A stretch of DNA of 32,000 nucleotides. Origin: Dickeya solani IPO 2222. GTDB taxonomy: Bacteria; Pseudomonadota; Gammaproteobacteria; Enterobacterales; Enterobacteriaceae. Positions 5,490-32,000 of this stretch are shown here, piece after piece (position 1 is the stretch's first letter; each line of letters opens with the position of its first letter). Position numbers and translations under genes: made by a program. Under the pieces are notes generated by a model. The model saw only the letters and a list, made by a program, of their open reading frames with translations, did not search any database and had not been told where the DNA came from. The stretch is from the NCBI RefSeq assembly GCF_001644705.1, contig NZ_CP015137.1, forward strand, positions 1,170,001 through 1,202,000, read 5' to 3'.

Positions 5490-6272
5490 TCATTGATTGC
5501 GGTTAAGCGCGTTCGCCAGCCAGGTCACCAGCAGCACCACCAGAAAATAGGAGATCACCAGCGCGCTGGTAAAATGCCCGCTGTCATTGCGTTTGTTGTA
5601 CAGGTACACCTGCAAGGTTTCGTAGTTGGTGCCGGCCAGCAGATTGGCGAACACGAACTCGCCGATCAGGAATGAAAACGACAGCAGCACGGCAATCATC
5701 ACCCCTTTACGCAGGTTGGGCAGCACCACCCACAGCGCCGCCTGCCAGGTACTGGCGCCGAGCAGATGCGCCGCGTCCAGCAACTCCTGCAAGTTGATGG
5801 CCTGCATGTTGTTGGCGATGGCGCGGTAAATAAACGGCAGTGCGATGGTGAAATAGCAGCCGACCAGAATCCAGGGGGTGCCGGTCAGCGCCAGCGGTTC
5901 GGCGGAGTAAAGCTGCAGCAGCCCCACCGACGACACCACCGGCGGCACCGCGAACGGCAGCAGAATCAGTACGTTCATCAGCCCGTCCAGCTTCGGAAAT
6001 GCCCAGGCGATCACGAACATCGCCGGCAACACCAGCAGCAGCGAAAACAGTAATGCGCCGAAACAAATCAGCAGCGAGTGACCCAGCGCCACCAGAAAAC
6101 GGCTGTCGCTCCACAGTTGCGTAAACCATTTCAGGGTCAGCCCCTGCGGCAGAATGGTCGCGCCCCACTCGGTGGCAAGCGCATAACCCAGCGTCGCCAG
6201 CAACGGCAACATCAGAATCAGTAACACCAGCCACACCACCAGCAGGTGGTAACGGCGTTCAGCACGGGACAT
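5490..6272 (-). CDS. ABC transporter permease
   Basis: The product is polytopic with an EAA loop (LLDAAHLLGASTWQAALWVVLPNLRKG). I chose the ATG at 6272 because GGAGG lies 6 nt upstream and this start clears the stop codon of the upstream gene at 6293. The longer ORF starting at 6332 would overlap that gene. Confidence 0.88.
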   Translation of the reverse strand: MSRAERRYHLLVVWLVLLILMLPLLATLGYALATEWGATILPQGLTLKWFTQLWSDSRFLVALGHSLLICFGALLFSLLLVLPAMFVIAWAFPKLDGLMNVLILLPFAVPPVVSSVGLLQLYSAEPLALTGTPWILVGCYFTIALPFIYRAIANNMQAINLQELLDAAHLLGASTWQAALWVVLPNLRKGVMIAVLLSFSFLIGEFVFANLLAGTNYETLQVYLYNKRNDSGHFTSALVISYFLVVLLVTWLANALNRNQ

Positions 6273-6292
6273 GGCGGCCTCCGGCAACAGGA

Positions 6293-7135
6293 TTAGCGGG
6301 CAGCATGGAGATAACTCCGGCGTAGCAGCCATTGGTGAACCACGGTAATCAGCGCCATCAGCAGTACCAGCAGCATGGACAGCGCGCTGCCCAGGTTCGG
6401 ATCCAGCGAGATATCGCCGGATACCAGCGCCGCAATGCGGATCGGCACCACGTTGAAGTTACCGGTAGTGAGTGCGTAAATGGTGGCGTAGGCGCCCAAC
6501 GCATTCGCCAGCAGAATGACGAAGGTGCCGAGCAACGCCGGCGTCAGCACCGGAATGCCGATATGCAGCCAGTAACGCCAGCGGCTGGCGCCCAGCAGCG
6601 CCGCCGACTCCTGCCATTCGCTGCGCAGCCCGTCAAACGCCGGGTAGAGCAGCAGGATGCCGAGCGGGATCTGGAAATAGGTATAAATCAGGATCAACCC
6701 GTCACGGGAGTAGAGATTAAAGCCGTCGATCAGCCCATTCTGCTTGAGCAACAGGGTGATAAAACCGTTCAGCCCCAGCATGATCACGAAGGCGAACGCC
6801 AGCGGCACGCCGGCGAAATTGCTGGTCATATTGGCGAACGACATCACAAAGCGCCGCAGCCGCCCTTCCCCCAGCTGTTGCAGCGAGTAGCCACCGACCA
6901 GCGCGATGAAAAGGCCGTACAGGCTCGACCAGAACGAGATATCCAGCGAAAAGCGCATCGCCTGCAAATAAAACGGCGACGTCAGCAGGTCGCGGTAATT
7001 CGCCAGCCCCCAGGCGCTGTCCATGTCGCTGTAAAAACTGTTGATCGCCATCCACACCAGCGGGGCTATCTGAAACGCGATAAACACCGCCAAAAACGGC
7101 AGCAGAACCAGCGCCGCCAGCCATCGAGTCCTCAC
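6293..7135 (-). CDS. ABC transporter permease
   Basis: The product is polytopic with an EAA loop (ESAALLGASRWRYWLHIGIPVL). Its start overlaps the upstream gene's stop by 4 nt (7132-7135), which indicates translational coupling. Confidence 0.9.
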   Translation of the reverse strand: MRTRWLAALVLLPFLAVFIAFQIAPLVWMAINSFYSDMDSAWGLANYRDLLTSPFYLQAMRFSLDISFWSSLYGLFIALVGGYSLQQLGEGRLRRFVMSFANMTSNFAGVPLAFAFVIMLGLNGFITLLLKQNGLIDGFNLYSRDGLILIYTYFQIPLGILLLYPAFDGLRSEWQESAALLGASRWRYWLHIGIPVLTPALLGTFVILLANALGAYATIYALTTGNFNVVPIRIAALVSGDISLDPNLGSALSMLLVLLMALITVVHQWLLRRSYLHAAR

Positions 7136-20148: not shown

Positions 20149-20356
20149 GTTCACTGCCGTGTAGGCAGCTTAGAAAAAGAAAGACAGGTAAAGAAGGTAT
20201 TATCTGGCGTTCACTGCCGTGTAGGCAGCTTAGAAAGGCAAAGCCGGTAAGCTCCGCCGAACCCGCAAGTTCACTGCCGTGTAGGCAGCTTAGAAAAGAT
20301 TGATTTTTGCGTCCAAGCGCTGACGTCGGTTCACTGCCGCACAGGCAGAGATTGAT
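20149..20356 (+). CRISPR. type I-F CRISPR mini-array: 3 full repeats, 3 spacers, and a truncated or aberrant 4th repeat
   Basis: The repeat GTTCACTGCCGTGTAGGCAGCTTAGAAA occurs at 20149, 20209 and 20269. The three 32-nt spacers are at 20177-20208, 20237-20268 and 20297-20328. The 4th unit (20329-20356) is GTTCACTGCCGCACAGGCAGAGATTGAT, which keeps the hairpin but lacks the CTTAGAAA handle. Confidence 0.95.
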
Positions 20357-20357
20357 T

Positions 20358-20665
20358 GGTTTGCTGGCGTTAAAAACTACGCTGAGGTGGGCGACTTCGC
20401 CGGATGCACGGCATGGATGCCGTGCAAGCCCATTCCGCGTTGGGAACGCGTAATGGGCGGTCCGAACAGCGAAGGCACCGCGTAGCGGCGTAGTTTAGCC
20501 TCCAGCCAGTGGTCAAGGAGAGGTGGCACCTGAACCTCTCCTTGTCGTGCGTGCAATGAAATGGCAGAGAAACGCTATTGTTTATCCCGCACGAAACATC
20601 CCACAGTGCTGACACTTCCGCTAATAAAGAACAACCCTGCTGTTTGTCAACAGCCCCTCGCAGCA
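20358..20665. repeat. structured intergenic element, copy 1 (paralog of 30530-30866, inverted)
   Basis: The reverse complement aligns with 30530-30866. The shared blocks are GCACGCACGACAAGGAGAGG, CCTCTCCTTGACCACTGGCTG, GCCTTCGCTGTTCGG and GGCGAAGTCGCC. Intervening helices differ by compensatory changes. No reading frame is shared. Confidence 0.8.
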
Positions 20666-20676
20666 GCGATTAACCC

Positions 20677-22050
20677 TTATTCCGCCGTCAGTGCCGACAC
20701 CGCCCCTTTTCGCTTTTTGATGGCATAGCCAGCGGCCAGCGCCAACAGCCAGAACGGAATCAGCCACACGGAAATCTGAATGCCCGGCGTCATCGCCATG
20801 ATCACCAGAATCCCGGCCAGAAACAGCAGGCACAGTATGTTGGTGAGCGGGTAGCCCAGGCTTTTGAAACGGGTGGTTTGCTGTGTGCGCTGTTTGGCCT
20901 GACGGAATTTCAGATGGGTGATGCTGATCATCGCCCAGTTAATCACCAGTGCAGACACCACCAACGCCATCAGCAGTTCAAACGCTTTGCCCGGCATCAG
21001 GTAGTTGAGCAGCACGCACAGCGCCGTCGCCAACGCCGAAACGCCAAGCGACAGCAGCGGAATGCCGCGGCGATTGACCGTCAGCAGCGCGCGCGGCGCG
21101 TTGCCCTGCTGCGCCAGCCCGAACAACATCCGGCTGTTGCAGTACACACAGCTGTTGTAGACCGACAGCGCGGCGGACAGCACCACCAGATTCAGCACGT
21201 TCGCCACCAGATTGCTATCCAGCGCATGGAAAATCAGCACGAACGGGCTGCCGCCTTCCACCACCTTCTGCCACGGATACAACGACAGCAGCACCGCCAG
21301 TGCCCCCACATAAAACAGCAGAATACGGTAAATCACCTGATTGGTGGCACGCGGAATGCTCTTCTGCGGGTCATCCGCTTCGGCCGCCGTAATCCCCACC
21401 AGTTCCAGCCCGCCAAAGGAAAACATGATCACCGCCATCGCCATCACCATGCCGCTGACGCCGTTCGGGAAGAAACCGCCGTGCTGCCACAGGTTGGCGA
21501 CGCTGGCGTCCGGCCCGCCGGTACCGCTCAACAACAGATAACCGCCAAACACGATCATGCCGATAATCGCCGTCACCTTAATAATGGAGAACCAGAATTC
21601 CAGTTCGCCGTAGACCTTGACGTTACTCAGGTTGATGGCATTAATGGCGACAAAAAACACCGCCGCCGATACCCAGGTCGGCACCGCCGGCCACCAGTAC
21701 TGGATGTAGATGCCCACCGCGCTCAGTTCCGCCATGCTCACCAGCACATACAGCACCCAATAATTCCAGCCGGACATAAACCCGGCAAAATTACCCCAGT
21801 ATTGATTGGCGAAATGGCTGAACGAACCGGCCACCGGCTCCTCCACCACCATTTCACCCAACTGACGCATAATAAAAAAAGCAATCACGCCGGCGATGGC
21901 GTAACCAAGCAGGACCGACGGCCCGGCCATGCGAATCGTCTGTGCGATACCGAGAAACAAACCGGTGCCCACCGCCCCGCCCAGCGCAATAAGCTGGATA
22001 TGCCGGTTCTTCAGCCCCCGTTTCAACTGGCTGTTTTGCTGTGTGTCCAT
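20677..22050 (-). CDS. aroP: aromatic amino acid:H+ symporter (AroP/PheP family, APC superfamily)
   Basis: The 457-aa product is the same length as E. coli AroP and collinear with it (LKRGLKNRHIQLIALGGAVGTGLFLG, MRQLGEMVVEEPVAGSFSHFA, FSFGGLELVGITAAEADDP, SVYNSCVYCNSRMLFGL). I cannot separate AroP from PheP by eye. Confidence 0.85.
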   Translation of the reverse strand: MDTQQNSQLKRGLKNRHIQLIALGGAVGTGLFLGIAQTIRMAGPSVLLGYAIAGVIAFFIMRQLGEMVVEEPVAGSFSHFANQYWGNFAGFMSGWNYWVLYVLVSMAELSAVGIYIQYWWPAVPTWVSAAVFFVAINAINLSNVKVYGELEFWFSIIKVTAIIGMIVFGGYLLLSGTGGPDASVANLWQHGGFFPNGVSGMVMAMAVIMFSFGGLELVGITAAEADDPQKSIPRATNQVIYRILLFYVGALAVLLSLYPWQKVVEGGSPFVLIFHALDSNLVANVLNLVVLSAALSVYNSCVYCNSRMLFGLAQQGNAPRALLTVNRRGIPLLSLGVSALATALCVLLNYLMPGKAFELLMALVVSALVINWAMISITHLKFRQAKQRTQQTTRFKSLGYPLTNILCLLFLAGILVIMAMTPGIQISVWLIPFWLLALAAGYAIKKRKGAVSALTAE

Positions 22051-22421
22051 CCCCTTCCCCCAGAAAAATGGTTTAATTCATTTTAAGTAATCACACACAG
22101 AGCAATTATCAGGCCAACCACGGTCATCGCCGATCGCCACCGCGTGTTTAAGAGACTTAACAATATGAATCGATTTAAAAAAAAGTTTCAGATTCACATT
22201 TCATGCAACAAAGACGCCATCACGTTGATTTAGTGTAAAAATCATTCAAAATCTGCATGCAACCGACAAATAACCTGACCGGCATACACTAAAATGAACC
22301 AGGATGGTGCAGCCGGTCAGATGGAAAAACGCGCTGGCAGCATAAGATGGCAAACAACGAACTTCCGGAAGCAAAAAAAGCTGATAGTCTGTAGGTTTTG
22401 TGCTTCTGGCAAGGCAGGGCT

Positions 22422-22898
22422 ATGTACAACATTGATGATTTCGATCTGAAGATCCTCACACTGCTGCAGGCAAATGGACGCCTTACCAATCAGGAACTCA
22501 GCGATCTGGTTGGGCTGTCTGCCTCACAGTGCTCTCGTCGTCGTATTGCCCTTGAACAGGCGCAACTGATTCTCGGGTATCACGCCCGGCTGGCGCCGGA
22601 TGCGGTCGGGCTGGAAGTGATGGGCCTGATTGAAGTACGGCTTATCAATCACACTCAGGAGTGTGTAGACAGCTTTCACCAGATGTTGGGCGAAGTCGAC
22701 GCCATTATCGACGCCTACAAAACCACCGGCGACGCGGATTACATGCTAAAAGTGGCGGTGGCGGACCTGCACGGCCTGAGCGCGCTGATCAGCCAGATTC
22801 TGGCGCGCAACAAAAGCGTGGCGCACCTGAAAACCTCAGTAGTGCTCAACCGCCTGAAAGAGAACGGGCTGATGGCGCCGGCGACCGCATCGCCCTAA
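22422..22898 (+). CDS. Lrp/AsnC-family transcriptional regulator
   Basis: The sequence MYNIDDFDLKILTLLQANGRLTNQELSDLVGLSASQCSRRR carries the HTH and is followed by a RAM/ACT-like domain. I chose the ATG at 22422. Confidence 0.85.
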   Translation: MYNIDDFDLKILTLLQANGRLTNQELSDLVGLSASQCSRRRIALEQAQLILGYHARLAPDAVGLEVMGLIEVRLINHTQECVDSFHQMLGEVDAIIDAYKTTGDADYMLKVAVADLHGLSALISQILARNKSVAHLKTSVVLNRLKENGLMAPATASP

Positions 22899-23149
22899 AT
22901 TGGTGCGAACACTGCTTCCACATGGTGCAGGAATGCATAATCCTTGCACCATAACCAAAATAAACACACAACATCATCAACAAAAACCAAATAAACGCAC
23001 AAGATACGCATAAAAAATTCATCCTGTGCATTCAATACGTTAATCCTCTCGCCGTACAGAAAACCTTCAAACGATGTATGCTGTCATAACGACTGGTGTG
23101 CTTCTTGCTTGAAAAGACAGGTATTCCTTCTTTTATCGGGCGCTTTTTC

Positions 23150-23764
23150 ATGGATAACGTCATTACACCACAACCGGTTTCCCATACGCTGCTGGAAGAT
23201 ATTCTGGCGCTACTCATCGGCACCCTGATGGTGTCGTTTGGCGTTATTCTGCTGCGTCAGGCTGGCGCGCTGACCGGCGGCACCGCCGGGATGGCGTTTT
23301 TGCTGCATTACGCCACCCACATCTCGTTCGGCACCGCGTTCTTCCTGATCAATCTGCCGTTTTATTACCTCGCCATCCGGCGTATGGGCTGGGCATTCAC
23401 CGTCAAAACCTTCTGCGCTGTGGCGATGGTGTCGCTGTTTTCCGACCTGCACCCGTTATTCATCCACTTTGACCGCCTGCAGCCGATTTACGCCACCCTG
23501 TTTGGCAACCTGATTATGGGGCTGGGGTTCATTGTGCTGTTCCGCCACCGCGCCAGTCTGGGCGGGGTGAATATTCTGGCGCTCTATTTACAGGACAAAA
23601 GTGGAATCCGTGCCGGAAAATTCCAGATGGCGGTGGATGTAACCATTGTGCTGACTTCACTGTTCGTGGTAAGCATACCGATGCTGATCGCGTCCATGCT
23701 GGGCGCGGCGGCGCTGAATCTGATTATCGCCATGAATCATCGACCTGGCCGTTATACAGCCTAA
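23150..23764 (+). CDS. YitT-family (DUF161-type) integral membrane protein
   Basis: The product has five or six TM helices, with [14 protein letters not shown] and [10 protein letters not shown] motifs typical of the YitT/UPF0750 family. I chose the ATG at 23150. It lies downstream of the Lrp-like regulator on the same strand. Confidence 0.65.
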
Positions 23765-23813
23765 GCCCTGCGCAAACAGCTTGACCCTTTATATCTCAGG
23801 AGAGTTACCGACC

Positions 23814-25007
23814 GTGTTCCAGAATGTTGACGCCTACGCTGGCGACCCTATCCTGTCCCTGATGGAGCAATTCAAGCAGGATCCCCGTACTGATAAAGTG
23901 AACCTCAGCATCGGGTTGTATTACGACGGACAGGGCGTCATTCCCCAGTTACAGGCGGTCAACGCCGCAGAAACACAGATGCAGGCCGAGCCGCAGCAGG
24001 CGTCGGTTTACCTGCCGATGGAAGGACTTAACGCTTACCGCAACGCGGTGCAAACTCTGCTGTTTGGCGAACACCATCCGGCGTTAACCTCACAGCGCAT
24101 CGCCACTATCCAGACGCTGGGCGGTTCCGGCGCGCTGAAAGTGGGCGCGGACTTTCTAAAACGTTATTTCCCGGATTCCGAAGTTTGGGTCAGCGACCCG
24201 ACCTGGGAAAACCATATCGCTATTTTCTCCGGTGCGGGTTTTCAGGTACACACCTACCCGTACTTTGACGCCGACACGCTGGGTGTCAACGTGGACGGTA
24301 TGATCAGCGCCCTGAAACAGCTGCCGCCGCGTAGCATTGTGCTGCTGCACCCGTGCTGCCATAACCCGACCGGATCAGACCTGACCCACGCCGAGTGGGA
24401 CCGCGTTATCGAAGTGCTGATCAAAGGCGAGCTGGTGCCGTTCCTCGATATCGCCTACCAGGGTTTTGGTGGCGGCATGGACGACGACGCTTACGCCATC
24501 CGCGCTATCGCCGGGGCTGGTCTGCCTGCGCTGGTCAGCAATTCGTTTTCCAAAATCTTCTCGCTGTATGGCGAACGCGTGGGCGGGTTATCGGTCGTGT
24601 GCGAAGATCAGGAAGCGGCGAACCGCGTGCTCGGCCAGTTGAAAGCCACCGTGCGCCGCAACTACTCCAGCCCGCCGAACTTCGGCGCACAGGTGGTATC
24701 GCGCGTGCTGAACGATAGCGCGCTCAACGCCAGCTGGCATGCGGAAGTGGAAGCCATGCGCCTGCGAATTCTGGAAATGCGCCAGACGCTGGTGGACGAA
24801 CTGAAAAAAGCGCTGCCGAACCGCAACGTCGACTACCTGCTGACCCAGCGCGGTATGTTTAGCTACACCGGCTTTAGCGCCGCACAGGTGGACCGCCTGC
24901 GGGAAGAGTTCGGCGTCTACCTGATCGCCAGCGGCCGCATCTGCGTCGCCGGTTTAAACCATCACAACGTACAGCGCGTGGCTGCCGCCTTCGCTGCCGT
25001 ACAGTAA
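23814..25007 (+). CDS. tyrB: aromatic-amino-acid aminotransferase
   Basis: From the GTG at 23814 the product is 397 aa, the same length as E. coli TyrB and collinear with it ([39 protein letters not shown] with the PLP lysine, [24 protein letters not shown]). Confidence 0.95.
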
Positions 25008-25036
25008 GTTATTCCTTTCACTTTTTTACGCCTTTT

Positions 25037-25068
25037 CCCCCTGCCGGTAACGGTTGGGGGATTTTTTC
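25037..25068 (+). terminator. Rho-independent terminator after tyrB
   Basis: CCCCC-N14-GGGGG is followed by ATTTTTTCT. Confidence 0.8.
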
Positions 25069-25147
25069 TGCCTGAGCGGCACCCAACGAATCGACCACTC
25101 CAACAACAACGCACGAATCTTTCTAAGCTGCCGCACAGGCAGCATCC
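25060..25147 (-). CRISPR. detached tail of the I-F array: repeat 3' part, a 32-nt spacer, and a degenerate terminal repeat
   Basis: The minus strand first reads GGATG-CTGCCTGTGCGGCAG-CTTAGAAA (25147-25120). A 32-nt stretch follows, GATTCGTGCGTTGTTGTTGGAGTGGTCGATTC (25119-25088). Then comes GTTGGGTGCCGCTCAGGCAGAAAAAATC (25087-25060), which is identical to the repeat at 17 of 28 positions. Confidence 0.7.
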
Positions 25148-25165
25148 CTCCCCAACCGGGGAGGG
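25146..25165 (-). terminator. GC hairpin just after the MCP stop codon
   Basis: CCCTCCCC-GGTT-GGGGAGGG lies 9 nt after the stop codon. It has no U-tract. Confidence 0.4.
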
Positions 25166-25174
25166 AAACGTTGG

Positions 25175-26866
25175 TCAGAACGACGTCCAGTCGTCATTGG
25201 TGCCGGCGGTGGTGGCGGCACGTTTTTCGGTTACGCTCGGGCGAGCAGAAGGCAAGGCGTGAGATAACGCCGCGGGCTGTCGGACCGACGACGGCGCGCC
25301 GTTGCCGCCCTGTGGCGTCAGGCGGAAAGCGCTGACCGCTTCGGCCAGCAGCGACGCCTGTGACTGCAGCGACAGCGCGGCGGATGCCGACTCTTCCACC
25401 AGCGCCGCATTCTGCTGGGTGGTGGTGTCAATTTGCCCGACCGCGATGTTGATCTGGCTGATGCCGTCGCTCTGCTCATGGCTGGCCTGCGAGATCTCGT
25501 TGATAATGCTGTGCACATCTTTAACGTGACCGGTCAGGCCATCCATGGTGGATTCGGCGGTGTCCACCAATTGCATCCCTTCCTGAATCTTGTCCACCGA
25601 ATCGTCGATCAGTTCCTTGATCTCTTTGGCCGCCGTGGCGCTGCGCTGCGCCAGCGAACGCACCTCGCCCGCCACCACCGCGAAACCGCGCCCTTGCTCG
25701 CCGGCGCGCGCGGCTTCCACCGCGGCGTTCAACGCCAGAATGTTGGTCTGGAACGCGATGCCGTCGATAACACCGATGATTTCAGCCATACGCATCGAGG
25801 CTTCACGAATACCCCGCATCTTACTGGTGACCGACAGCATCACTTCGCCGCTACGGTGCGCGGCCGACGACGCCTGATTGGCGATCGACGTAGCCTGATG
25901 GGTGTTTTCCGCGGTGTTTTTGATGGTCGACACCAGTTCTTCCATCGACGCCGCCGTCTGCTCCAGCGAACTGGCCTGTTCTTCGGTGCGGGATGAGAGA
26001 TCCTGATTACCTGCGGCGATTTGCGAGGCGGCGGTGGAAATGGCCTCCGCACCGTCGCGCACCTGGCCGACGATCTGGCGCAGGCTGGCGTTCATGTTAT
26101 CCAGCGCCTGCAACAGTAATCCGGCTTCATCCTTGCGGTTGGAAGAAATCTGCGAGGTAAGATCACCTTGCGATACGCGATCGGCCATGATCAGCGCCTG
26201 CTGGATCGGCTGGGTGACGCTACGGGTGATCGCCATCGCCACCCAGACGCTGAGCACCACGCCAATACCCAGAATCGCCAGCAGGACCAGACGAATATCG
26301 TGATAAGTGGCCGACATGGCGTCAACCGTGCTCATCATCGCGTTGTCCTGATAATCCACCAGCTGGCGCACCGCATTGCGGTATTCCCGTTGCGCCGGGT
26401 TGAGACGCTGATTAAATTCATTCAGCGCCTCTTCCCGATTGTTGGCTTTCACCAGCGCAATGACTTTTTGCCCGGACTCCAGAAACTTGGCCCGAATACG
26501 GCGAATATCACCGATAAGCTGCTGGTTCTTCGCATCGTTGGATTCATTGGCATGTTTTTCCAGCGCATCCATCAGCCGGGTAATTTCCTTCGATATCGGG
26601 GGAATTTGGTCAGACACCGCTTTGATACGGTCATCGCCCGACACCAACAGCAGTTGCTGAAAAACCCGCACGCCTTCATTCACATTATCTATCAGGGTGT
26701 TGGCATCAACGGTTTGAGGGTAAATCTCCTGCACGATATCACGTGCGCTATCATGAAAACTCGATAGCTTGGTTATCGATAATATGCCTACAACGACCAG
26801 CATGACGGCCAGAACAGCAAAGCCGGCCCCCAAACGATACCCGATTCGCCAATCAGATAAACGCAT
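25175..26866 (-). CDS. methyl-accepting chemotaxis protein (four-helix-bundle sensor, HAMP, MA domain)
   Basis: The architecture is TM1, a periplasmic domain, TM2, HAMP and a highly conserved signalling hairpin (IAFQTNILALNAAVEAARAGEQGRGFAVVAGEVRSLAQRSA). The C-terminal DWTSF resembles the xWxxF CheR/CheB tether pentapeptide. Confidence 0.93.
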   Translation of the reverse strand: MRLSDWRIGYRLGAGFAVLAVMLVVVGILSITKLSSFHDSARDIVQEIYPQTVDANTLIDNVNEGVRVFQQLLLVSGDDRIKAVSDQIPPISKEITRLMDALEKHANESNDAKNQQLIGDIRRIRAKFLESGQKVIALVKANNREEALNEFNQRLNPAQREYRNAVRQLVDYQDNAMMSTVDAMSATYHDIRLVLLAILGIGVVLSVWVAMAITRSVTQPIQQALIMADRVSQGDLTSQISSNRKDEAGLLLQALDNMNASLRQIVGQVRDGAEAISTAASQIAAGNQDLSSRTEEQASSLEQTAASMEELVSTIKNTAENTHQATSIANQASSAAHRSGEVMLSVTSKMRGIREASMRMAEIIGVIDGIAFQTNILALNAAVEAARAGEQGRGFAVVAGEVRSLAQRSATAAKEIKELIDDSVDKIQEGMQLVDTAESTMDGLTGHVKDVHSIINEISQASHEQSDGISQINIAVGQIDTTTQQNAALVEESASAALSLQSQASLLAEAVSAFRLTPQGGNGAPSSVRQPAALSHALPSARPSVTEKRAATTAGTNDDWTSF

Positions 26867-26903
26867 ACTCAGCTCCTCACTCCTTTATTAAGAACAAAAT
26901 GTC

Positions 26904-27040
26904 ATATCCCGCCATACTTCACGTTGCAGGCGCGTTGGCTTTCTTACTCGGCCCATAAATGGGCCTCGCCCTAGGTGCCGCTGCAAACAGCGTTCAAAAC
27001 GCGAACGTTTTGTCCTGCAACTCGAATTAATTTGGGTATA
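26904..27040. repeat. ERIC/IRU-like intergenic repeat
   Basis: The ends CATACTTCACGTTGCAGG and CCTGCAACTCGAATTAATTTGGGTATA match the conserved termini of enterobacterial ERIC elements and form terminal inverted repeats. The element is about 137 bp long. Confidence 0.7.
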
Positions 27041-27975
27041 AGCATGACTTCCTCAGGGGCAAAACACAGAGCCGCGGCTAAAGCAGGCATCGCATCCGTT
27101 ACTGTCAATAATCGTGATAAAAGCAAAGCAACAACCAGACTGATACATCAGCCAGCCATCACGATGAAATACTTCTCATCCCCTTTTCAGGCGACAAAAA
27201 TCATTTCCTTTCCACAGTGTGTAAGACAAAAACATTATAAAAAAAGAGATTCAAAAATAGTGCGAGACTAAGGCCGGACGCGGGATAGTCTTCACCGGTC
27301 GCCATTACATGCACTCTGCCCTGCTCCCTGGCCTACTATCGGCACCTCATTCTATCAACCTTTATGATTCGATCGATAAAAACATTCAAATAATGACTAT
27401 AAATAGCTATAAACTATCGATTTTCCGATATCGATCGGAAATAACCACAAAAAAGACATACTCTTATCAAGGTTAAATCACATCGGCAGCGAGGTGTTAA
27501 CAAGAGGCAACAACCGCGCCGGTTAAAAAGCAAGGGGGGAGAAGAAGAGAGACCTGACTATTTTTCATCAGTAAAAATAATCAGTTACAAAAAATCGTTG
27601 CGAATAGCGATCGCGGCAAACGGCTCGCCTGAGTTAAAAAATAGGGCAACCAGGCAGGTTTTCTTATTACCCACTGTTGAGAAAATCAGAGCAAAAAAAA
27701 TAAAAAATGAAATTAATACTAAGCTAATCAAAATCGGTGGGATATGATAACAATTCTTATATCCGACATCCTCACTCAACAATAGACTTTATTAAAACAC
27801 GGTTTCTTTCTCTATTCCTGTTTCTGCTAAAAATTTCCCGTAACGCTGGTTGACACTATTTTGAACCTTGACTAATACTTAATCATTAAGGCTGATATTC
27901 TGCCTTAATTGGGAAATAAATTAATTGCACATTTTGTGCAACCAGAAATGGTAATAATCCGGTAAATATAACTAA

Positions 27976-29586
27976 ATGCGAATAAAAAAACTGATAAAAA
28001 TAAACCTTTTGCATTTAATCCTGTTTATTTCTCTTGCCAGCATGTTCGTCACGCTTTTGAATAGCTATTTAACCTTTTATAACGTTCAAAAGAAATTACT
28101 TATTGAGCAGGCAGTTAAGGTGAACTCAAGCTATTCATCCAAATTATCCGTAACCGTGGATAATTTTTTCTCTATGTCAGAAGAGCAACTGTCTTACAGC
28201 GCCAAATTGATCGCCAGCCATATCCAGTCCGGCAATTTACGGCAATTACAAGCCGAGCTGCAACGCATTCACCAGTTAAGCCATGCATTCAACTCAATGG
28301 TGGTCGTGACGGAAAATGGCCAGATCATTGCAGCCTCGCCGACGTCACTAAATTTGACCGGTATCACACTGACCTCTAACCGACATCTCACCACACTGAG
28401 AGAGAAGCGATTTTTTATCAGCGCACCCTATACCTCGCTGAGTGGTAATTATATTATTTTTATTTCCTACCCTATCGCAGATGATGCCGGTAATTATCTC
28501 GGTTATATCGGCGGCTCGCTATATCTTAATAGTCGACGTATTCTGAATGAATTCATGAATACGCAATTCAGTAATGACAGTTTTAATACTTATGTGATTG
28601 ATAAAGAAGGCACCATTATTTACCACCGCGACATCGGTCAGATTGGCAAAAAATTCAACGATTCGCATATTCTGAGTTCAATCGCCAATCAGGATAAAGG
28701 CAGCTTTATGATGCCGGACGAACAAGGGATCCTGTCACCGGCGTCGTTTATCCGCACACAAAAGTCAGGCTGGATTATCATCACCCAGCAGTCGTTCCAT
28801 TCTCTTGAGGAAGCACTGAACGACGTGATGCTCAGCGTTCTGAAGCAGGGAACGCCGCTGGGCATCCTCACCCTGCTGGCGCTCAGCATTCTGGCCTATT
28901 ACATCTCCAAGCCGCTGCGCCAGTTGGCTAAATCAGCCAGCAGCATGGATCAGCTTGGCGTCATCAGCAAAATCCGCGCCGTCAAAGCCTGGTATCTGGA
29001 AGCCGAACAGTTAAAGCGGGTCTTGCTGATGGGCACCGTATTGTTGCACAAACGCATTGGCCGCCTCAGTTCGGAAGCCCATACCGACCCGCTTTCCGGC
29101 ATGCTGAACCGACGGGGCATGCAGGAAAGCATGGAAGAGATCCGCAGCGAATATAAGAAAGTCTCGGTGATCGCCATTGATATCGATCATTTCAAAGTGA
29201 TCAATGACTCGTTTGGACACGACGTCGGTGACGAGGTGATCCGCAAACTGAGTCAGCAAATCCGTAAAAACTTCCGCAAGACCGACCTGGTCTGTCGCAT
29301 TGGCGGCGAAGAATTCCTGATTCTGCTGCCTAGCGCGGATATTCACGTCGCCACGGTGATCGCCGAACGGCTACGCAACAACGTCGCGAACACCGTCTAT
29401 ATGCCGGGTTCGCGTCACCATCAGGTCACCATTTCAGTTGGCGTGACGACGTTTAACCCACAGAAGTCGGCGCTGGACATCGCCATCAAAACGGCGGATA
29501 ACGCGCTGTACAAAGCCAAAAATGGCGGCCGTAACCGGGTGGTGGTGGAATACCTCTCTGACGATATTTCTCTGGCACAACATTAA
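27976..29586 (+). CDS. membrane diguanylate cyclase with a periplasmic Cache-like sensor and a GGDEF domain
   Basis: The architecture is TM, a roughly 270-aa periplasmic domain, TM, then a GGDEF domain. The active site is RIGGEEF and an RxxD I-site (RKTD) lies 5 residues upstream. DPLSGMLNRRG and ADNALYKAKNGGRNR are also present. The gene is AT-rich. Confidence 0.9.
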   Translation: MRIKKLIKINLLHLILFISLASMFVTLLNSYLTFYNVQKKLLIEQAVKVNSSYSSKLSVTVDNFFSMSEEQLSYSAKLIASHIQSGNLRQLQAELQRIHQLSHAFNSMVVVTENGQIIAASPTSLNLTGITLTSNRHLTTLREKRFFISAPYTSLSGNYIIFISYPIADDAGNYLGYIGGSLYLNSRRILNEFMNTQFSNDSFNTYVIDKEGTIIYHRDIGQIGKKFNDSHILSSIANQDKGSFMMPDEQGILSPASFIRTQKSGWIIITQQSFHSLEEALNDVMLSVLKQGTPLGILTLLALSILAYYISKPLRQLAKSASSMDQLGVISKIRAVKAWYLEAEQLKRVLLMGTVLLHKRIGRLSSEAHTDPLSGMLNRRGMQESMEEIRSEYKKVSVIAIDIDHFKVINDSFGHDVGDEVIRKLSQQIRKNFRKTDLVCRIGGEEFLILLPSADIHVATVIAERLRNNVANTVYMPGSRHHQVTISVGVTTFNPQKSALDIAIKTADNALYKAKNGGRNRVVVEYLSDDISLAQH

Positions 29587-29660
29587 CCGCGCCCAACCTC
29601 TGTGCCGCGGCGCGGTTCCTCCGTCTGCCGAAAGGCGGACTGTGCGCCCGGTCCGGGCGT
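29585..29660 (+). terminator. cluster of three GC-rich hairpins after the cyclase gene (REP-like or terminator)
   Basis: The first hairpin is AACCGCGCC-N15-GGCGCGGTT. The second is GTCTGCC-GAAA-GGCGGAC. The third is CGCCC-GGTCC-GGGCG. None has a U-tract. Confidence 0.35.
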
Positions 29661-29815
29661 ATCCGCTTAATAGTGAGACCCTGTCTAATGTTATAGATTC
29701 GTGTATCAGAGCAAAGAATCGGACTTTCAACGACAATGGCAGACTGTCAAAAAACCAAACTTTTTTGTACCGGGTTATTGGTATCATTTTGTTTGTCTTA
29801 TTTATTTTTGTTTAA

Positions 29816-30046
29816 CATCCAGAATGCGATATTGCCCGGCACGTCACGGTGAGTATTGGCGGTTGTACCTTCGAGTATCGGCAATCGCCGGATTTTGTCA
29901 TGGCGATCGAAACGGCGGATAAATTACTGTATCAGTCCAAGCAGGCGGGGAAAGATAGAGCCACCCTGCGCACGCTGGCGCAGGACACTAACGAACCAGA
30001 ATCATTCGTGCCCGCTTTACCGCCGGCGGAACACGAGAAACGGTAA
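29816..30046 (+). pseudogene. 3' remnant of a second GGDEF-domain gene
   Basis: The frame reads ..ARHVTVSIGGCTFEYRQSPDFVMAIETADKLLYQSKQAGKDRA.., which is the last roughly 45 residues of a GGDEF domain plus a tail. An in-frame stop lies immediately upstream at 29813, and no N-terminal domain is present. Confidence 0.7.
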
Positions 30047-30062
30047 TAACGAAACAGCAGAA

Positions 30063-30482
30063 TTACTCACCCTGCAGCGTCGCCACCAGCGAACGGCTGC
30101 CGCCGTGGTTGCGGTGTTCACACAGGTAAATCCCCTGCCAGGTGCCGACGTGCAGCCGACCGTTACGCACCGGCAACATCAGGCTGCTACCCAACAGGCT
30201 GCTTTTCAGGTGCGCCGGCATGTCGTCGCTGCCTTCGTAGGTATGGCGGTAATAAGGCTCGTCTTCCGGCACCAGATGGTTAAAGGCGCTTTCGAAATCC
30301 AGCCGTACCGTTGGATCGGCGTTTTCATTGAGCGTCAGCGAGGCCGAGGTGTGGCAGATAAACACATGCAGCAACCCCACCCTGACCTCGCGCAGATCCG
30401 TCACCTGCGCCAGCACTTCATCAGTAATCAAATGAAAGCCGCGGGAACGGGGTTTCAGCCGAATATCGTATTGTTGCCACAT
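30063..30482 (-). CDS. yjbQ: YjbQ-family protein (UPF0047; secondary thiamine-phosphate synthase-like)
   Basis: [67 protein letters not shown] is collinear with E. coli YjbQ. I chose the ATG at 30482, which has AGGAG upstream. Confidence 0.9.
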
Positions 30483-30521
30483 CTCGCGTCTCCTGTGGTG
30501 GTGAATCATTGCCAGAGGATG

Positions 30522-30547
30522 CCATAAAAAAGCGCGGCAAGCCGCGA
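30522..30547 (-). terminator. Rho-independent terminator (minus strand) between the structured element and yjbQ
   Basis: The minus strand reads GCGCGGCTTGCCGCGC followed by TTTTTTAT. Confidence 0.65.
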
Positions 30548-30866
30548 TAAGGCTGTAAACAAACAGACTTGTTGTTTCGTATAGACGGATTTATGCCAAA
30601 ACGGTAAAAAGTTTCGTGCGTAATAAAATTGATGATTCCTTTGCAGCATCATCGCACGCACGACAAGGAGAGGCTCAAACGCCGCCTCTCCTTGACCACT
30701 GGCTGAGGGCTAAACTGTGCCGCTAGCGCGGTACCTTCGGCATCCGCCTTCGCTGTTCGGGCCGCCCGTGACGTGCTCCCGGCACGGCACGGGCTTTCGC
30801 CGCGTCCATGCGGCTCACCCGGCGAAGTCGCCTGCCTCAGCACAGTTTTTGACGCCAAAACACCCC
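30530..30866. repeat. structured intergenic element, copy 2 (paralog of 20358-20665)
   Basis: See copy 1 for the alignment. The + strand here corresponds to the minus strand of copy 1. The 15-mer GCGCGGCAAGCCGCG occurs at its left end and just beyond its right end (30532-30546 and 30902-30916). Confidence 0.8.
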
Positions 30867-30944
30867 GTCATCTTGCACTGATAAGGTTTGTCAGTAGTCT
30901 GGCGCGGCAAGCCGCGCTTAACAACAACCCCTGGTTTGGAAGGC

Positions 30945-32000
30945 TTAACCACGTTCCAGAATCGGCTTCAGGAAACGGGCGGTGTGGGATTTCTCGCACT
31001 GCGCCACCGTTTCCGGCGTGCCGGAAACCAGAATCTCGCCGCCGCCGCTGCCGCCTTCCGGCCCCAGATCCACGATCCAGTCCGCGGTCTTGATCACGTC
31101 CAGATTGTGTTCGATTACCACAATGGTGTTGCCCTGATCGCGCAACTGATGCAGTACCGCCAGCAATTGCTGGATATCGGCGAAGTGCAGGCCGGTAGTA
31201 GGCTCGTCCAGAATATAGAGCGTCTGCCCGGTGCCGCGTTTCGACAGCTCACGCGCCAGTTTCACGCGCTGCGCCTCACCGCCAGACAAGGTGGTGGCCG
31301 ACTGCCCCAACCGGATGTAGGACAAACCAACATCGATCAGCGTTTGCAGTTTACGCGCCAGCGCCGGAATGGCGTCGAAGAACTCGCGTGCTTCCTCGAT
31401 AGTCATCTCCAGCACTTCATGGATGCTCTTGCCCTTGTATTTGATCTCCAGCGTCTCGCGGTTATAACGTTTGCCTTTGCATTGATCGCAGGGGACGTAA
31501 ATATCCGGCAGGAAGTGCATTTCCACCTTGATCACGCCATCGCCCTGACAGGCTTCGCAACGCCCGCCGCGCACGTTAAAGCTGAAACGGCCGGGGTTAT
31601 AACCGCGGCTACGCGCTTCCGGCACGCCGGCGAACAACTCGCGGATCGGCGTGAACACGCCGGTGTAAGTGGCCGGGTTGGATCGCGGCGTACGACCGAT
31701 CGGGCTTTGATCGATGTCGATCACCTTGTCGAAATGCTCCAGCCCCTGAATATCGCGGTACGCCGCCGGTTCGTTCAGCTCGCCGCCGTTGAGCTGGCGC
31801 TGGGCGATCGGGAACAGGGTATCGTTGATCAGCGTCGATTTGCCGGAACCGGACACCCCGGTAATACAGGTGAACAGCCCGACCGGCAGGGTCAGGGTGA
31901 CGTCTTTCAGGTTGTTGCCACGTGCGCCAATCAGCTTGAGGACTTTGCCTGGATCCGCCGGTATGCGCTGCGCCGGGATCTCGATTTTACGCGCGCCGCT
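30945..32000 (-). CDS. uvrA: excinuclease ABC subunit A, C-terminal 351 aa (5' end outside window)
   Basis: The frame is open to the window edge. The second ABC module is present ([37 protein letters not shown]), as is the zinc finger [14 protein letters not shown]. The C-terminus is [11 protein letters not shown], as in E. coli UvrA. Confidence 0.97.

Follow-up and report, generated by a model that had tools for sequence, protein, structure and literature searches.

We examined a 32,000-nucleotide (nt) stretch of Dickeya solani IPO 2222 (NZ_CP015137.1, positions 1,170,001 to 1,202,000; hereafter the window), which carries, in order, dnaB, alr, a gene for a substrate-binding protein, an orphan CRISPR array of type I-F, aroP-like and lrp-like genes, tyrB, a chemoreceptor gene, a GGDEF gene, yjbQ and uvrA. 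An earlier note on this DNA had described two copies of a structured element here, and two copies are indeed present in inverted orientation: copy 2, the main subject of this analysis, fills the spacer between uvrA and yjbQ, and copy 1 abuts the CRISPR array. Their cores of ~270 nt (20358-20614 on the plus strand and 30594-30864) are 75-78% identical, and their fold is conserved, but they do not form a gene pair, as the element occurs in ~15 copies per genome. Positions and gene calls bear out the orientations given there: copy 1 runs in the direction of the CRISPR array, copy 2 in that of uvrA. As argued below, positions 30550-30901 of the minus strand most probably constitute a non-autonomous MITE (miniature inverted-repeat transposable element) of the YPAL/RU-2 kind, in a long form specific to Dickeya. 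The features on which this argument draws are as follows (TIR, terminal inverted repeat; L numbers designate individual loci).

30945-32000, minus strand: 3' part of uvrA (stop codon 30945-30947), co-oriented with and upstream of copy 2; UvrA Pfam domains are present in the gene calls of the identical loci L031-L038.
30902-30921, minus strand: upstream duplicate of the target, TTAAGCGCGGCTTGCCGCGC, the uvrA terminator stem-loop parted from its T-run; L040-L045 have this sequence once, with TTTTTT directly after it.
30886-30901, minus strand: 5' TIR of copy 2, CAGACTACTGACAAAC; the 12-mer CTGYTGACAAAC stands at both ends of copies, inverted.
30550-30901, minus strand: element copy 2, a probable YPAL/RU-2-type MITE of ~351 nt, from a profile match and alignment with 30+ copies (ends +/- 1-4 nt).
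30550-30564, minus strand: 3' TIR of copy 2, GTTTGTTTACAGCCT, degenerate here relative to the family consensus GTTTGTCAACAGCCT.
30526-30549, minus strand: downstream duplicate of the target (TATCGCGGCTTGCCGCGC) and a run of six T, from the comparison of empty and occupied sites.
30063-30482, minus strand: yjbQ, the co-oriented gene downstream of copy 2.
20149-20356, plus strand: orphan type I-F CRISPR array with 3 repeats, 3 spacers and a degenerate terminal repeat fused to copy 1.
20349-20655, plus strand: element copy 1, truncated on its 5' side, where it has no TIR, and belonging to the CRISPR-adjacent subfamily, from profile match and alignment.

The start of yjbQ was placed at the ATG at 30482 (139 amino acids), where the list of open reading frames (ORFs) had given 30509, on the basis of an AGGAGA ribosome-binding site and an exact protein look-up; the resulting protein is identical to YjbQ of D. 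solani-type assemblies.

Insertion of copy 2 into the uvrA terminator

The boundaries of copy 2 were set by comparing empty with occupied uvrA-yjbQ sites, for which the corresponding spacers of other Dickeya strains were collected via YjbQ homologues. Empty sites were identified in D. dadantii-type strains (L040-L042), in D. oryzae (L043, L044) and in one further lineage of Dickeya (L045, L046), where the spacer measures 82-91 nt and reads ...GTTGTTAAGCGCGGCTTGCCGCGCTTTTTTAT..., a single intrinsic terminator. Occupied sites comprise the window, a set of eight D. solani-type loci identical to one another (L031-L038) and a single strain of the D. dadantii type (L039), with the layout ...TTAAGCGCGGCTTGCCGCGC / CAGACTACTGACAAAC ... 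GTTTGTTTACAGCC(T) / T(T/C)ATC(G/A)CGGCTTGCCGCGC TTTTTT, in which the free-standing slashes mark the junctions. This comparison shows that copy 2 inserted exactly between the stem-loop of the uvrA terminator and its T-run, duplicating ~20 bp with the whole stem-loop (15 bp perfect). A 15-mer, GCGCGGCAAGCCGCG, had been reported at 30532 and 30902, and it does occur at exactly these two places in the window (0.06 expected). A canonical terminator had also been proposed to end an RNA starting just below the uvrA stop codon; the terminator is real, and is the only terminator-like site in 30400-31000 (minus strand, stem 30546-30533, then six T to 30526), but both it and the repeated 15-mer are explained by target-site duplication of the uvrA terminator, and no promoter is predicted for the proposed transcript. 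What had looked like a pair of small RNA (sRNA) genes would thus be resolved as a recently mobile, terminator-targeting repeat, which explains the "terminator" at its flank, the doubled 15-mer and why the strand had seemed ambiguous. Whether the uvrA-yjbQ site is filled or empty also serves as a simple marker separating Dickeya lineages.

This pattern recurs at other members of the family, with flanking duplications of a 22-bp hairpin (L027), a ~14-bp imperfect palindrome (L023/L063) and 7 bp (L055); many copies have no recognisable duplication. In 5 of 22 copies, a perfect hairpin with a stem of 6 bp or more terminates no further than 12 nt upstream of the element 5' end, compared with 2.3% of random windows (p = 1e-4); a comparison of minimum free energy between 34-nt flanks and random windows revealed no significant hairpin enrichment (p = 0.23). 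In ~18 of 24 scorable copies, the closest long ORF upstream runs in the direction of the element and ends within ~50 nt of it, a count that derives from a crude ORF heuristic and includes orthologous copies that are not independent. Together, these features would fit a transposase acting in trans that attacks the base of palindromes, in which case the duplication would equal the palindrome and vary in length from site to site.

The relationship to a known mobile element emerged from a literal literature search for the TIR sequence. The element TIRs, CAGACTGCTGACAAAC ... GTTTGTCAACAGCCT, ~16 bp in length, match those of YPAL/RU-2, a 168-nt MITE of Yersinia (YPAL stands for Yersinia palindromic sequences), and the alignment of 32 copies yields family consensus ends of (TT)CAGRCTGYTGACAAAC at the 5' side and GTTTGTCAACAGCCT(CAA) at the 3' side. 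The 168-nt RU-2 (= YPAL) of Y. pestis CO92 starts TTCAGACTGCTGACAAAC and finishes ...CTTTGTCAATAACCTCA (Delihas 2007, PMC2759123). The 5' end of the Dickeya element is identical to TTCAGACTGCTGACAAAC, with L027 agreeing at 16/16 positions, and its 3' end is homologous to CTTTGTCAATAACCTCA, the reverse complement of the RU-2 3' end being TGAGGTTATTGACAAAG. The 12-mer CTGYTGACAAAC, found in inverted orientation at the element ends, likewise agrees fully with the 5' end of Y. pestis RU-2/YPAL; away from element ends, the 337 kb of Dickeya DNA collected contain just three chance matches to it, each with one mismatch.

Searches with blastn using RU-2 retrieve YPAL-like copies on plasmids, whereas the Dickeya element as query retrieves none. 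A 164-nt YPAL-like MITE, 74-75% identical to Y. pestis RU-2, was found at L119 4001-4164 (NZ_CP058862.1, an IncN plasmid) and in 15 other plasmid records; most of these plasmids, which come from Klebsiella, E. coli, Citrobacter and Shigella, are conjugative. The IncN copy, which is unannotated, is flanked by a duplicated 19-nt hairpin (CAGGGGCcatATGCCCCTG / CAGGGGCaaaATGCCCCTG). Partial matches to the YPAL core, with undefined element ends, were also observed at L120 1501-1588 (Pantoea vagans pPV989-508) and L121 1501-1575 (an Enterobacter chuandaensis plasmid); both retain the closing helix GUAAAG/CUUUAC and both GGA-loop hairpins, with compensated stems.

A dispersed Dickeya family with a conserved fold

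A scan of species-representative genomes with the central hairpin of the element returned at least 30 exact matches; among the matches listed were 14 in D. oryzae ZYY5 and 16 in D. undicola 2B12, and D. solani was absent among them. A metagenome scan gave 72 matches, 15 of them true family members, all in one metagenome-derived assembly (JAAIGF01). The copy number is therefore ~15 per genome (14-16 in three Dickeya genomes, at least that many where counts come from the matches listed), and because the element recurs at this frequency in at least three Dickeya genomes, the features of copy 2 lie far beyond chance. No BLAST match to the Dickeya element was obtained in PLSDB plasmids, 5,426 E. 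coli genomes or phages, and as far as these sequence searches reach the family is restricted to Dickeya. We found no description of it in the literature on Dickeya MITEs, sRNAs or CRISPR trailers. The remaining 57 of the 72 metagenome loci (within L047-L118) hold unrelated hairpins of the form TCAAGGAGAGG-N7-11-CCTCTCCTTG(A), many of them palindromic on both strands, which come from diverse samples, including human skin and fermentation, and lie outside the Dickeya element family.

Alignment of the 32 copies defined the forms and ends of the element, and 29 copies were used for structure and GGA counts. Element length ranges from 343 to 490 nt, with a short form of ~345-355 nt and forms of 420-490 nt carrying optional modules. 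Module A (73-85 nt) is inserted in the apical loop of hairpin 6 and contributes two further GGA hairpins, with loops uuGGGAAc and cAGGGAUg; module B measures ~68 nt. Module A was observed in L003, L005, L010-L013, L018 and L023-L025, module B in L007, L011 and L020, and the two have the motif AACAGCGTTTACGCTGGCCCG in common. All 47 copies from the window, Dickeya genomes and JAAIGF01 are of MITE size, and the family displays the generic traits of MITEs, namely TIRs, target duplication, a length below 600 bp, absence of coding sequence and many copies. Core lengths are spread over all three classes modulo 3 and hence reveal no conserved reading frame. In 9/9 orthologous comparisons (D. oryzae, D. 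undicola, JAAIGF01), the element was more conserved (88-99%) than either 500-nt flank (79-95%); these flanks are mostly coding.

An RNAalifold consensus of the 29 copies comprises 69 pairs in 9 helices, with 99.0% of cells paired. Compensatory changes affect 20 pairs and 80 cells, compared with 20.8 +/- 3.7 cells in column shuffles (0/500 reaching the observed value), and slid controls, in which partners were moved by 1-3 columns, gave at most 6 compensatory cells. For example, pair 112-123 of hairpin 5 is GC in 16 copies, CG in 12 and AU in 1, and pair 140-223 of hairpin 6 is CG in 18 and UA in 10. On copy 2, the consensus fold maps as follows.

30799-30814, minus strand: hairpin 5, a 5-bp stem with loop AUGGAC (GGA at 30805-30807); 3/5 pairs are compensatory (GC/CG/AU).
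30764-30794, minus strand: hairpin 6, an 11-bp interrupted stem with loop CGGGAG (GGA at 30777-30779), the site of module A in long forms; 7/11 pairs are compensatory.
30701-30856, minus strand: long-range helices H1-H4, enclosing the multi-branch domain of hairpins 5-7 and including the A-run (30844-30848) complementary to the plus-strand run of five T.
30662-30696, minus strand: hairpin 8, with the invariant stem AAGGAGAGG / CCUCUCCUU; the apical pair is C-G in 17 copies and U-A in 12.
30615-30658, minus strand: hairpin 9 (GUGCGUGCGAUGA ... CGCACGAAAC), the site of majority G-U pairs.

The AAGGAG previously assigned to a conserved stem is found there, AAGGAGAGG forming part of a perfect 11-bp stem (30664-30674 paired to 30684-30694). 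Such an elaborate fold, kept by compensatory changes in an element of double YPAL size, is unusual for a MITE and goes beyond the descriptions that we found.

Within this fold, the GGA motifs reported for the variable hairpin loops of both copies were confirmed at their coordinates: cAUGGAc and cCGGGAg on the minus strand in copy 2, and cAUGGAu and uUGGGAa in copy 1. Across the family, the loop of hairpin 5 reads A(N)GGA(Y) in 28/29 copies, and the apical loop of hairpin 6 contains at least one GGA, also in 28 of 29, its short-form loops following the pattern NNNGGAR (CCGGGAG, TTGGGAA, TCAGGAA, CCTGGAG, TCTGGAA, TAAGGAA, CCAGGAG, CTGGGAG). In both hairpins the GGA is thus constant while neighbouring loop bases vary, and copies carry on average 5.3 GGA versus 3.7 TCC. 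A comparable arrangement exists in Y. pestis YPAL, which has two adjacent small hairpins, cgccAAGGAUggcg and uacAUGGAUgua. All four YPAL-type sequences examined (Yersinia, plasmid, Pantoea, Enterobacter) place GGA in both loops on stems that differ, with changes such as CGCGCC/GGCGCG versus CGCGTC/GACGCG, and UACA/UGUA versus GUAC/GUAC versus GCC/GGC. This GGA-loop hairpin pair, the one feature common to the Dickeya form and to YPAL-type elements of Yersinia, IncN and other plasmids, Pantoea and Enterobacter, likewise exceeds existing descriptions known to us from these searches.

One subfamily of the element is fused to CRISPR arrays. At the end of the array in the window, the degenerate repeat reads GTTCACTGCCGCACAGGCAG followed by AGATTGAT, and from its last 8 nt onward the sequence is that of copy 1, which lacks approximately the first 30 nt of the element, including the 5' TIR. 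An identical junction between repeat and element follows the orthologous D. oryzae array L004 (about 5836-6307) as well as two D. undicola arrays with different repeat variants, L022 (6084-7382, at least 16 repeats) and L029 (1160-2171, 11 repeats). CRISPR-type copies number 5 of 32, of which four abut arrays and one (L017) has lost both the array and the 5' half of the element. Because the CRISPR-adjacent copies share derived characters, the most economical account is that element and array fused once, long ago, and that the arrays diverged afterwards. In several Dickeya species, type I-F arrays have this subfamily as their conserved trailer, which is again beyond the descriptions found. In the window, the last spacer (20297-20328) and the sequence after the terminal repeat (20349-20395) both begin AGATTGATT...TTTGC; this resemblance suggests that the spacer may derive from an old duplication of the repeat-element junction, not from normal acquisition.

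The inverted copies 1 and 2 bracket ~10 kb of the window (20656-30549: aroP-like, lrp-like, tyrB, chemoreceptor, GGDEF and yjbQ genes), a segment that could be inverted by homologous recombination between them. Beside yjbQ, the dCache/GGDEF diguanylate cyclase gene (27976-29586, plus strand) is called as 470-536 amino acids, or split in two, across the near-identical D. solani-type assemblies L031-L038, which suggests frameshifts or assembly errors.

Strand, expression and competing explanations

The strand of the element had been described as ambiguous, and folding energies do not separate the two strands: both fold well (z -3.5 to -5), with RNAalifold energies of -189 versus -177. However, three pairs have a G-U majority on the uvrA-sense strand (U-G in 29/29 copies; U-G 17, C-G 8 and U-A 2; G-U 21, G-C 6 and A-U 2), and none has a majority of A-C. 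These pairs, together with the fixed orientation of copies relative to upstream genes and terminators, favour minus in copy 2 and plus in copy 1 as the informative strand. A run of five T on the plus strand, in 'GCACAGTTTTT' at 30846-30850, had been read as terminator-like; it fails terminator criteria, and corresponds to the complement of the A-run in the conserved long-range helix AAAAC/GUUU(A). The 3'-terminal hairpin of the element, followed on the opposite strand by a T-rich tract, does score as terminator-like (20637-20653 on the minus strand of the window; L027 3590-3607 on the plus strand), and the element may accordingly also stop transcription arriving from a convergent downstream gene.

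No sigma-70-like promoter was predicted on either strand in 30400-31000, around copy 1 or around two other copies, and no GacA/UvrY box (TGTAAG-N6-CTTACA) was detected within 5 kb of copy 2 or near copy 1. Given that the upstream hairpin copy has lost its U-tract and that no promoter is predicted, read-through from uvrA is the simplest route, and judging from these signals it is the most likely means by which copy 2 is expressed on the minus strand. Transcription of uvrA would read into the element and stop at the regenerated terminator (30546-30526), such that the element would constitute a structured extension of the uvrA 3' untranslated region.

Short hairpins that display GGA in their loop carry the recognition signature of CsrA/RsmA (RUACARGGAUGU in the consensus from systematic evolution of ligands by exponential enrichment), and a CsrA dimer bridges two sites ~10-60 nt apart. 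The twin GGA-loop hairpins of the element, ~30 nt apart, would therefore suit as a docking site for one RsmA (CsrA) dimer, whose binding could change how stable the host mRNA is or contribute to RsmA titration. Docking is plausible because GGA is kept in the loops amid changing neighbours and stems; it is nevertheless the least certain step of our account, and one that we consider possible but rather doubtful. A broader proposal, that YPAL-type MITEs including the Dickeya form are mobile CsrA/RsmA-docking modules that insert in fixed orientation at terminator palindromes and regenerate the terminator behind them, is put forward more tentatively still. If it held, ~15 host transcripts in each genome would have acquired twin GGA hairpins (quadruple with module A) at their 3' ends, as would type I-F CRISPR array transcripts at their trailer end. 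All of these would be tied into the Csr/Rsm network, either as a distributed sponge or because RsmA would control the fate of mRNA and precursor CRISPR RNA (pre-crRNA). Binding of RsmA would also imply that a transposable element spreads post-transcriptional sites in plant and animal pathogens whose virulence is controlled by Csr/Rsm. We found no paper connecting CsrA with MITEs.

The strongest competing view is that of a purely selfish MITE, in which the fold and GGA loops serve transposition, through recognition of single-stranded or cruciform DNA or of RNA by a transposase, or are kept uniform by conversion, with no RsmA binding and no effect on uvrA. It draws on the same evidence for mobility as our own explanation, as well as on the stable folding of MITE transcripts in general (PMC2229807), on the indecisive balance of G-U and A-C in helices of both strands, and on gain and loss of module A between orthologues, which indicates conversion between copies. 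It does not readily accommodate GGA loops that are invariant while adjacent bases and stems change, both in Dickeya and in distant YPAL-type elements, nor three G-U-majority pairs on one strand only, an insertion orientation specified relative to upstream genes, or extra modules that bring more GGA hairpins; we regard it as a serious contender that is somewhat unlikely to be the whole answer. A function at the level of DNA or termination, as proposed for REP/BIME sequences, in which the element insulates convergent or adjacent units or binds nucleoid proteins and recognition of RNA by protein is irrelevant, would be in keeping with copies at gene 3' ends, mostly between convergent genes, with the 3'-terminal hairpin resembling a terminator on the opposite strand and with a terminator regenerated by insertion. 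Such a function leaves both the 250-nt multi-helix fold with its compensatory changes and the invariant GGA loops unexplained, and, as yjbQ is co-oriented, copy 2 has no convergent transcription to stop, making this improbable as the explanation here.

Two further proposals fare considerably worse. Minus-strand GGA-loop hairpins, a rightly placed terminator and a very weak resemblance of module A to RsmY could point to a stand-alone gene for a CsrA/RsmA-sequestering sRNA, transcribed from a promoter of its own just past the uvrA stop codon and ended at 30547-30522 by a terminator that also belongs to it. Yet that terminator is the host uvrA terminator duplicated by insertion, the promoter and GacA/UvrY searches described above were negative, no Csr/Rsm family is matched and only 2 GGA loops are conserved, and ~15 dispersed copies with TIRs and target duplications do not resemble a gene pair; such a gene is thus highly improbable. 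Equally hard to credit is the idea that the family is primarily a type I-F trailer module that ends or processes pre-crRNA, other copies being dispersed derivatives. Copy 1 and three other Dickeya copies do abut a degenerate I-F terminal repeat with the same junction and orientation, but CRISPR-type copies are few and form one derived, 5'-truncated subfamily that fits a single fusion, while copy 2 is complete at both ends, is flanked by a target duplication and lies near no repeat. Moreover, among those checked of the 15 copies in JAAIGF01 none lies beside a repeat, and Yersinia YPAL is not described as CRISPR-linked in the review consulted (PMC2229807).

Our preferred reading, a mobile MITE of YPAL/RU-2 descent whose RNA could bind RsmA, has also to be weighed against several of our own observations. 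A global alignment with RU-2 gave convincing matches at the ends only; the interior was not alignable, and the Dickeya element is twice as long. Homology of the Dickeya element to YPAL beyond the ends and the twin-hairpin layout is thus unproven, and for the same reasons we class it as a long variant sharing ends and insertion mechanism, not as a plain YPAL copy. No larger TIR-bounded element was found in the ~337 kb of fetched Dickeya DNA, nor any transposase in the loci examined, and the sources consulted name no autonomous partner. Conserved GGA loops number 2, or 4 with module A, far below known Csr/Rsm sponge RNAs. Regarding expression, L002, L024 and other copies lie behind terminators that still have their T-run, so read-through is not guaranteed family-wide. 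Helices common to the predictions for the two strands contain almost as many A-C cells (16) as G-U cells (21), a balance that is not decisive and leaves three pairs plus orientation to carry the strand call. Finally, module A has been gained or lost between orthologous copies of closely related genomes (L024/L097, L030/L072, L013/L087), and copies therefore exchange sequence, which implies gene conversion, or that module A is itself mobile. Homogenisation by conversion is hence a live alternative that could account for the high conservation of the element without selection at each site.

Relation to known repeats and regulatory RNAs

Several established classes were considered and set aside. 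A bacterial class C group II intron was rejected, as no intron family matched at E <= 10 and introns possess neither TIRs nor a target duplication, both of which are present here. IS200/IS605-type and IS110 bridge-RNA elements were likewise discarded, since the element has TIRs, duplicates its target, enters varied targets and matches no model. The idea that the sequestered AAGGAG precedes a type I toxin or a small ORF is not supported either: only a 9-codon TTG frame is present, downstream frames are unconserved and, as above, core lengths fall in all modulo-3 classes.

Among mobile elements with similar targets, IS1272/TnSha1 of the IS1182 family inserts at the base of terminator hairpins without primary-sequence specificity (PMC4923244). 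The Dickeya element resembles it in having the terminator-hairpin base as its target; IS1272/TnSha1, however, deletes part of the hairpin, generates no duplication, inserts in both orientations and has its own transposase. An IS1182-family partner, an idea that arose from the long hairpin duplications, was therefore rejected, since IS1272/TnSha1 deletes and does not duplicate, and the resemblance is retained as an analogy only. No IS1182-type gene was linked to the Dickeya element in the loci examined, and in a published survey table IS1182 is listed for other plant pathogens while the entries for D. dadantii and D. solani are apparently empty, our assignment of columns in that table being inferred. 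ERIC/RU-1 and Correia (NEMIS) sequences are also small non-coding repeats that are co-transcribed and alter mRNA stability or processing via RNase E or RNase III; they differ in duplicating TA, in having a single long TIR hairpin, and in lacking hairpin-sized duplications and twin GGA loops.

With the regulatory RNAs CsrB, CsrC, RsmB, RsmY and RsmZ, the element shares short hairpins with A(N)GGA loops, at a spacing that would suit one CsrA dimer. It has 2-4 conserved GGA loops, compared with ~7-22 in those RNAs, is multi-copy and mobile, and lacks a covariance-model match, a promoter of its own and a GacA/UvrY box. In Rfam searches of the window, CRISPR repeats alone reached the gathering score, and over copy 2 there was noise only, with no Csr/Rsm match at E <= 10; module A of the long-form copy L011 scored 11.8 bits against RsmY (E = 2.1; threshold 57 bits). 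Membership of the CsrB/RsmB class was consequently rejected on account of the missing covariance-model match, the 2-4 GGA loops, the lack of a promoter and the borrowed terminator. The earlier note had itself counted about 4 GGA motifs per copy, far fewer than in CsrB/RsmB; that deficit stands, although the loops actually conserved are 2, rising to 4 in long forms.

The closest known relative remains YPAL/RU-2 (De Gregorio et al. 2006; Delihas 2007, 2008). Compared with its 167-168 nt, the Dickeya element is larger (343-490 nt), with a more extensive multi-branch fold, the invariant AAGGAGAGG hairpin, two optional modules and one subfamily fused to CRISPR array trailers, and this form was met in Dickeya alone in the searches made. 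The Delihas review (PMC2229807), summarising De Gregorio et al. (2006), reports that YPAL duplicates 3-26 bp of target, that dyad symmetry lies within or next to its targets, that Y. pestis and Y. pseudotuberculosis differ in which sites are filled and which empty, and that YPAL is co-transcribed with upstream genes, with a possible effect on transcript stability. The Dickeya element, whose behaviour was reconstructed independently of that account, offers counterparts: its ends match those of YPAL, its duplications are similarly variable (7-22 bp), its targets have dyad symmetry, and its sites are filled or empty among close relatives. Furthermore, both are intergenic, Dickeya copies are mostly co-oriented with upstream genes, which would fit co-transcription of the YPAL kind, and both carry paired, adjacent hairpins with GGA in their loops.

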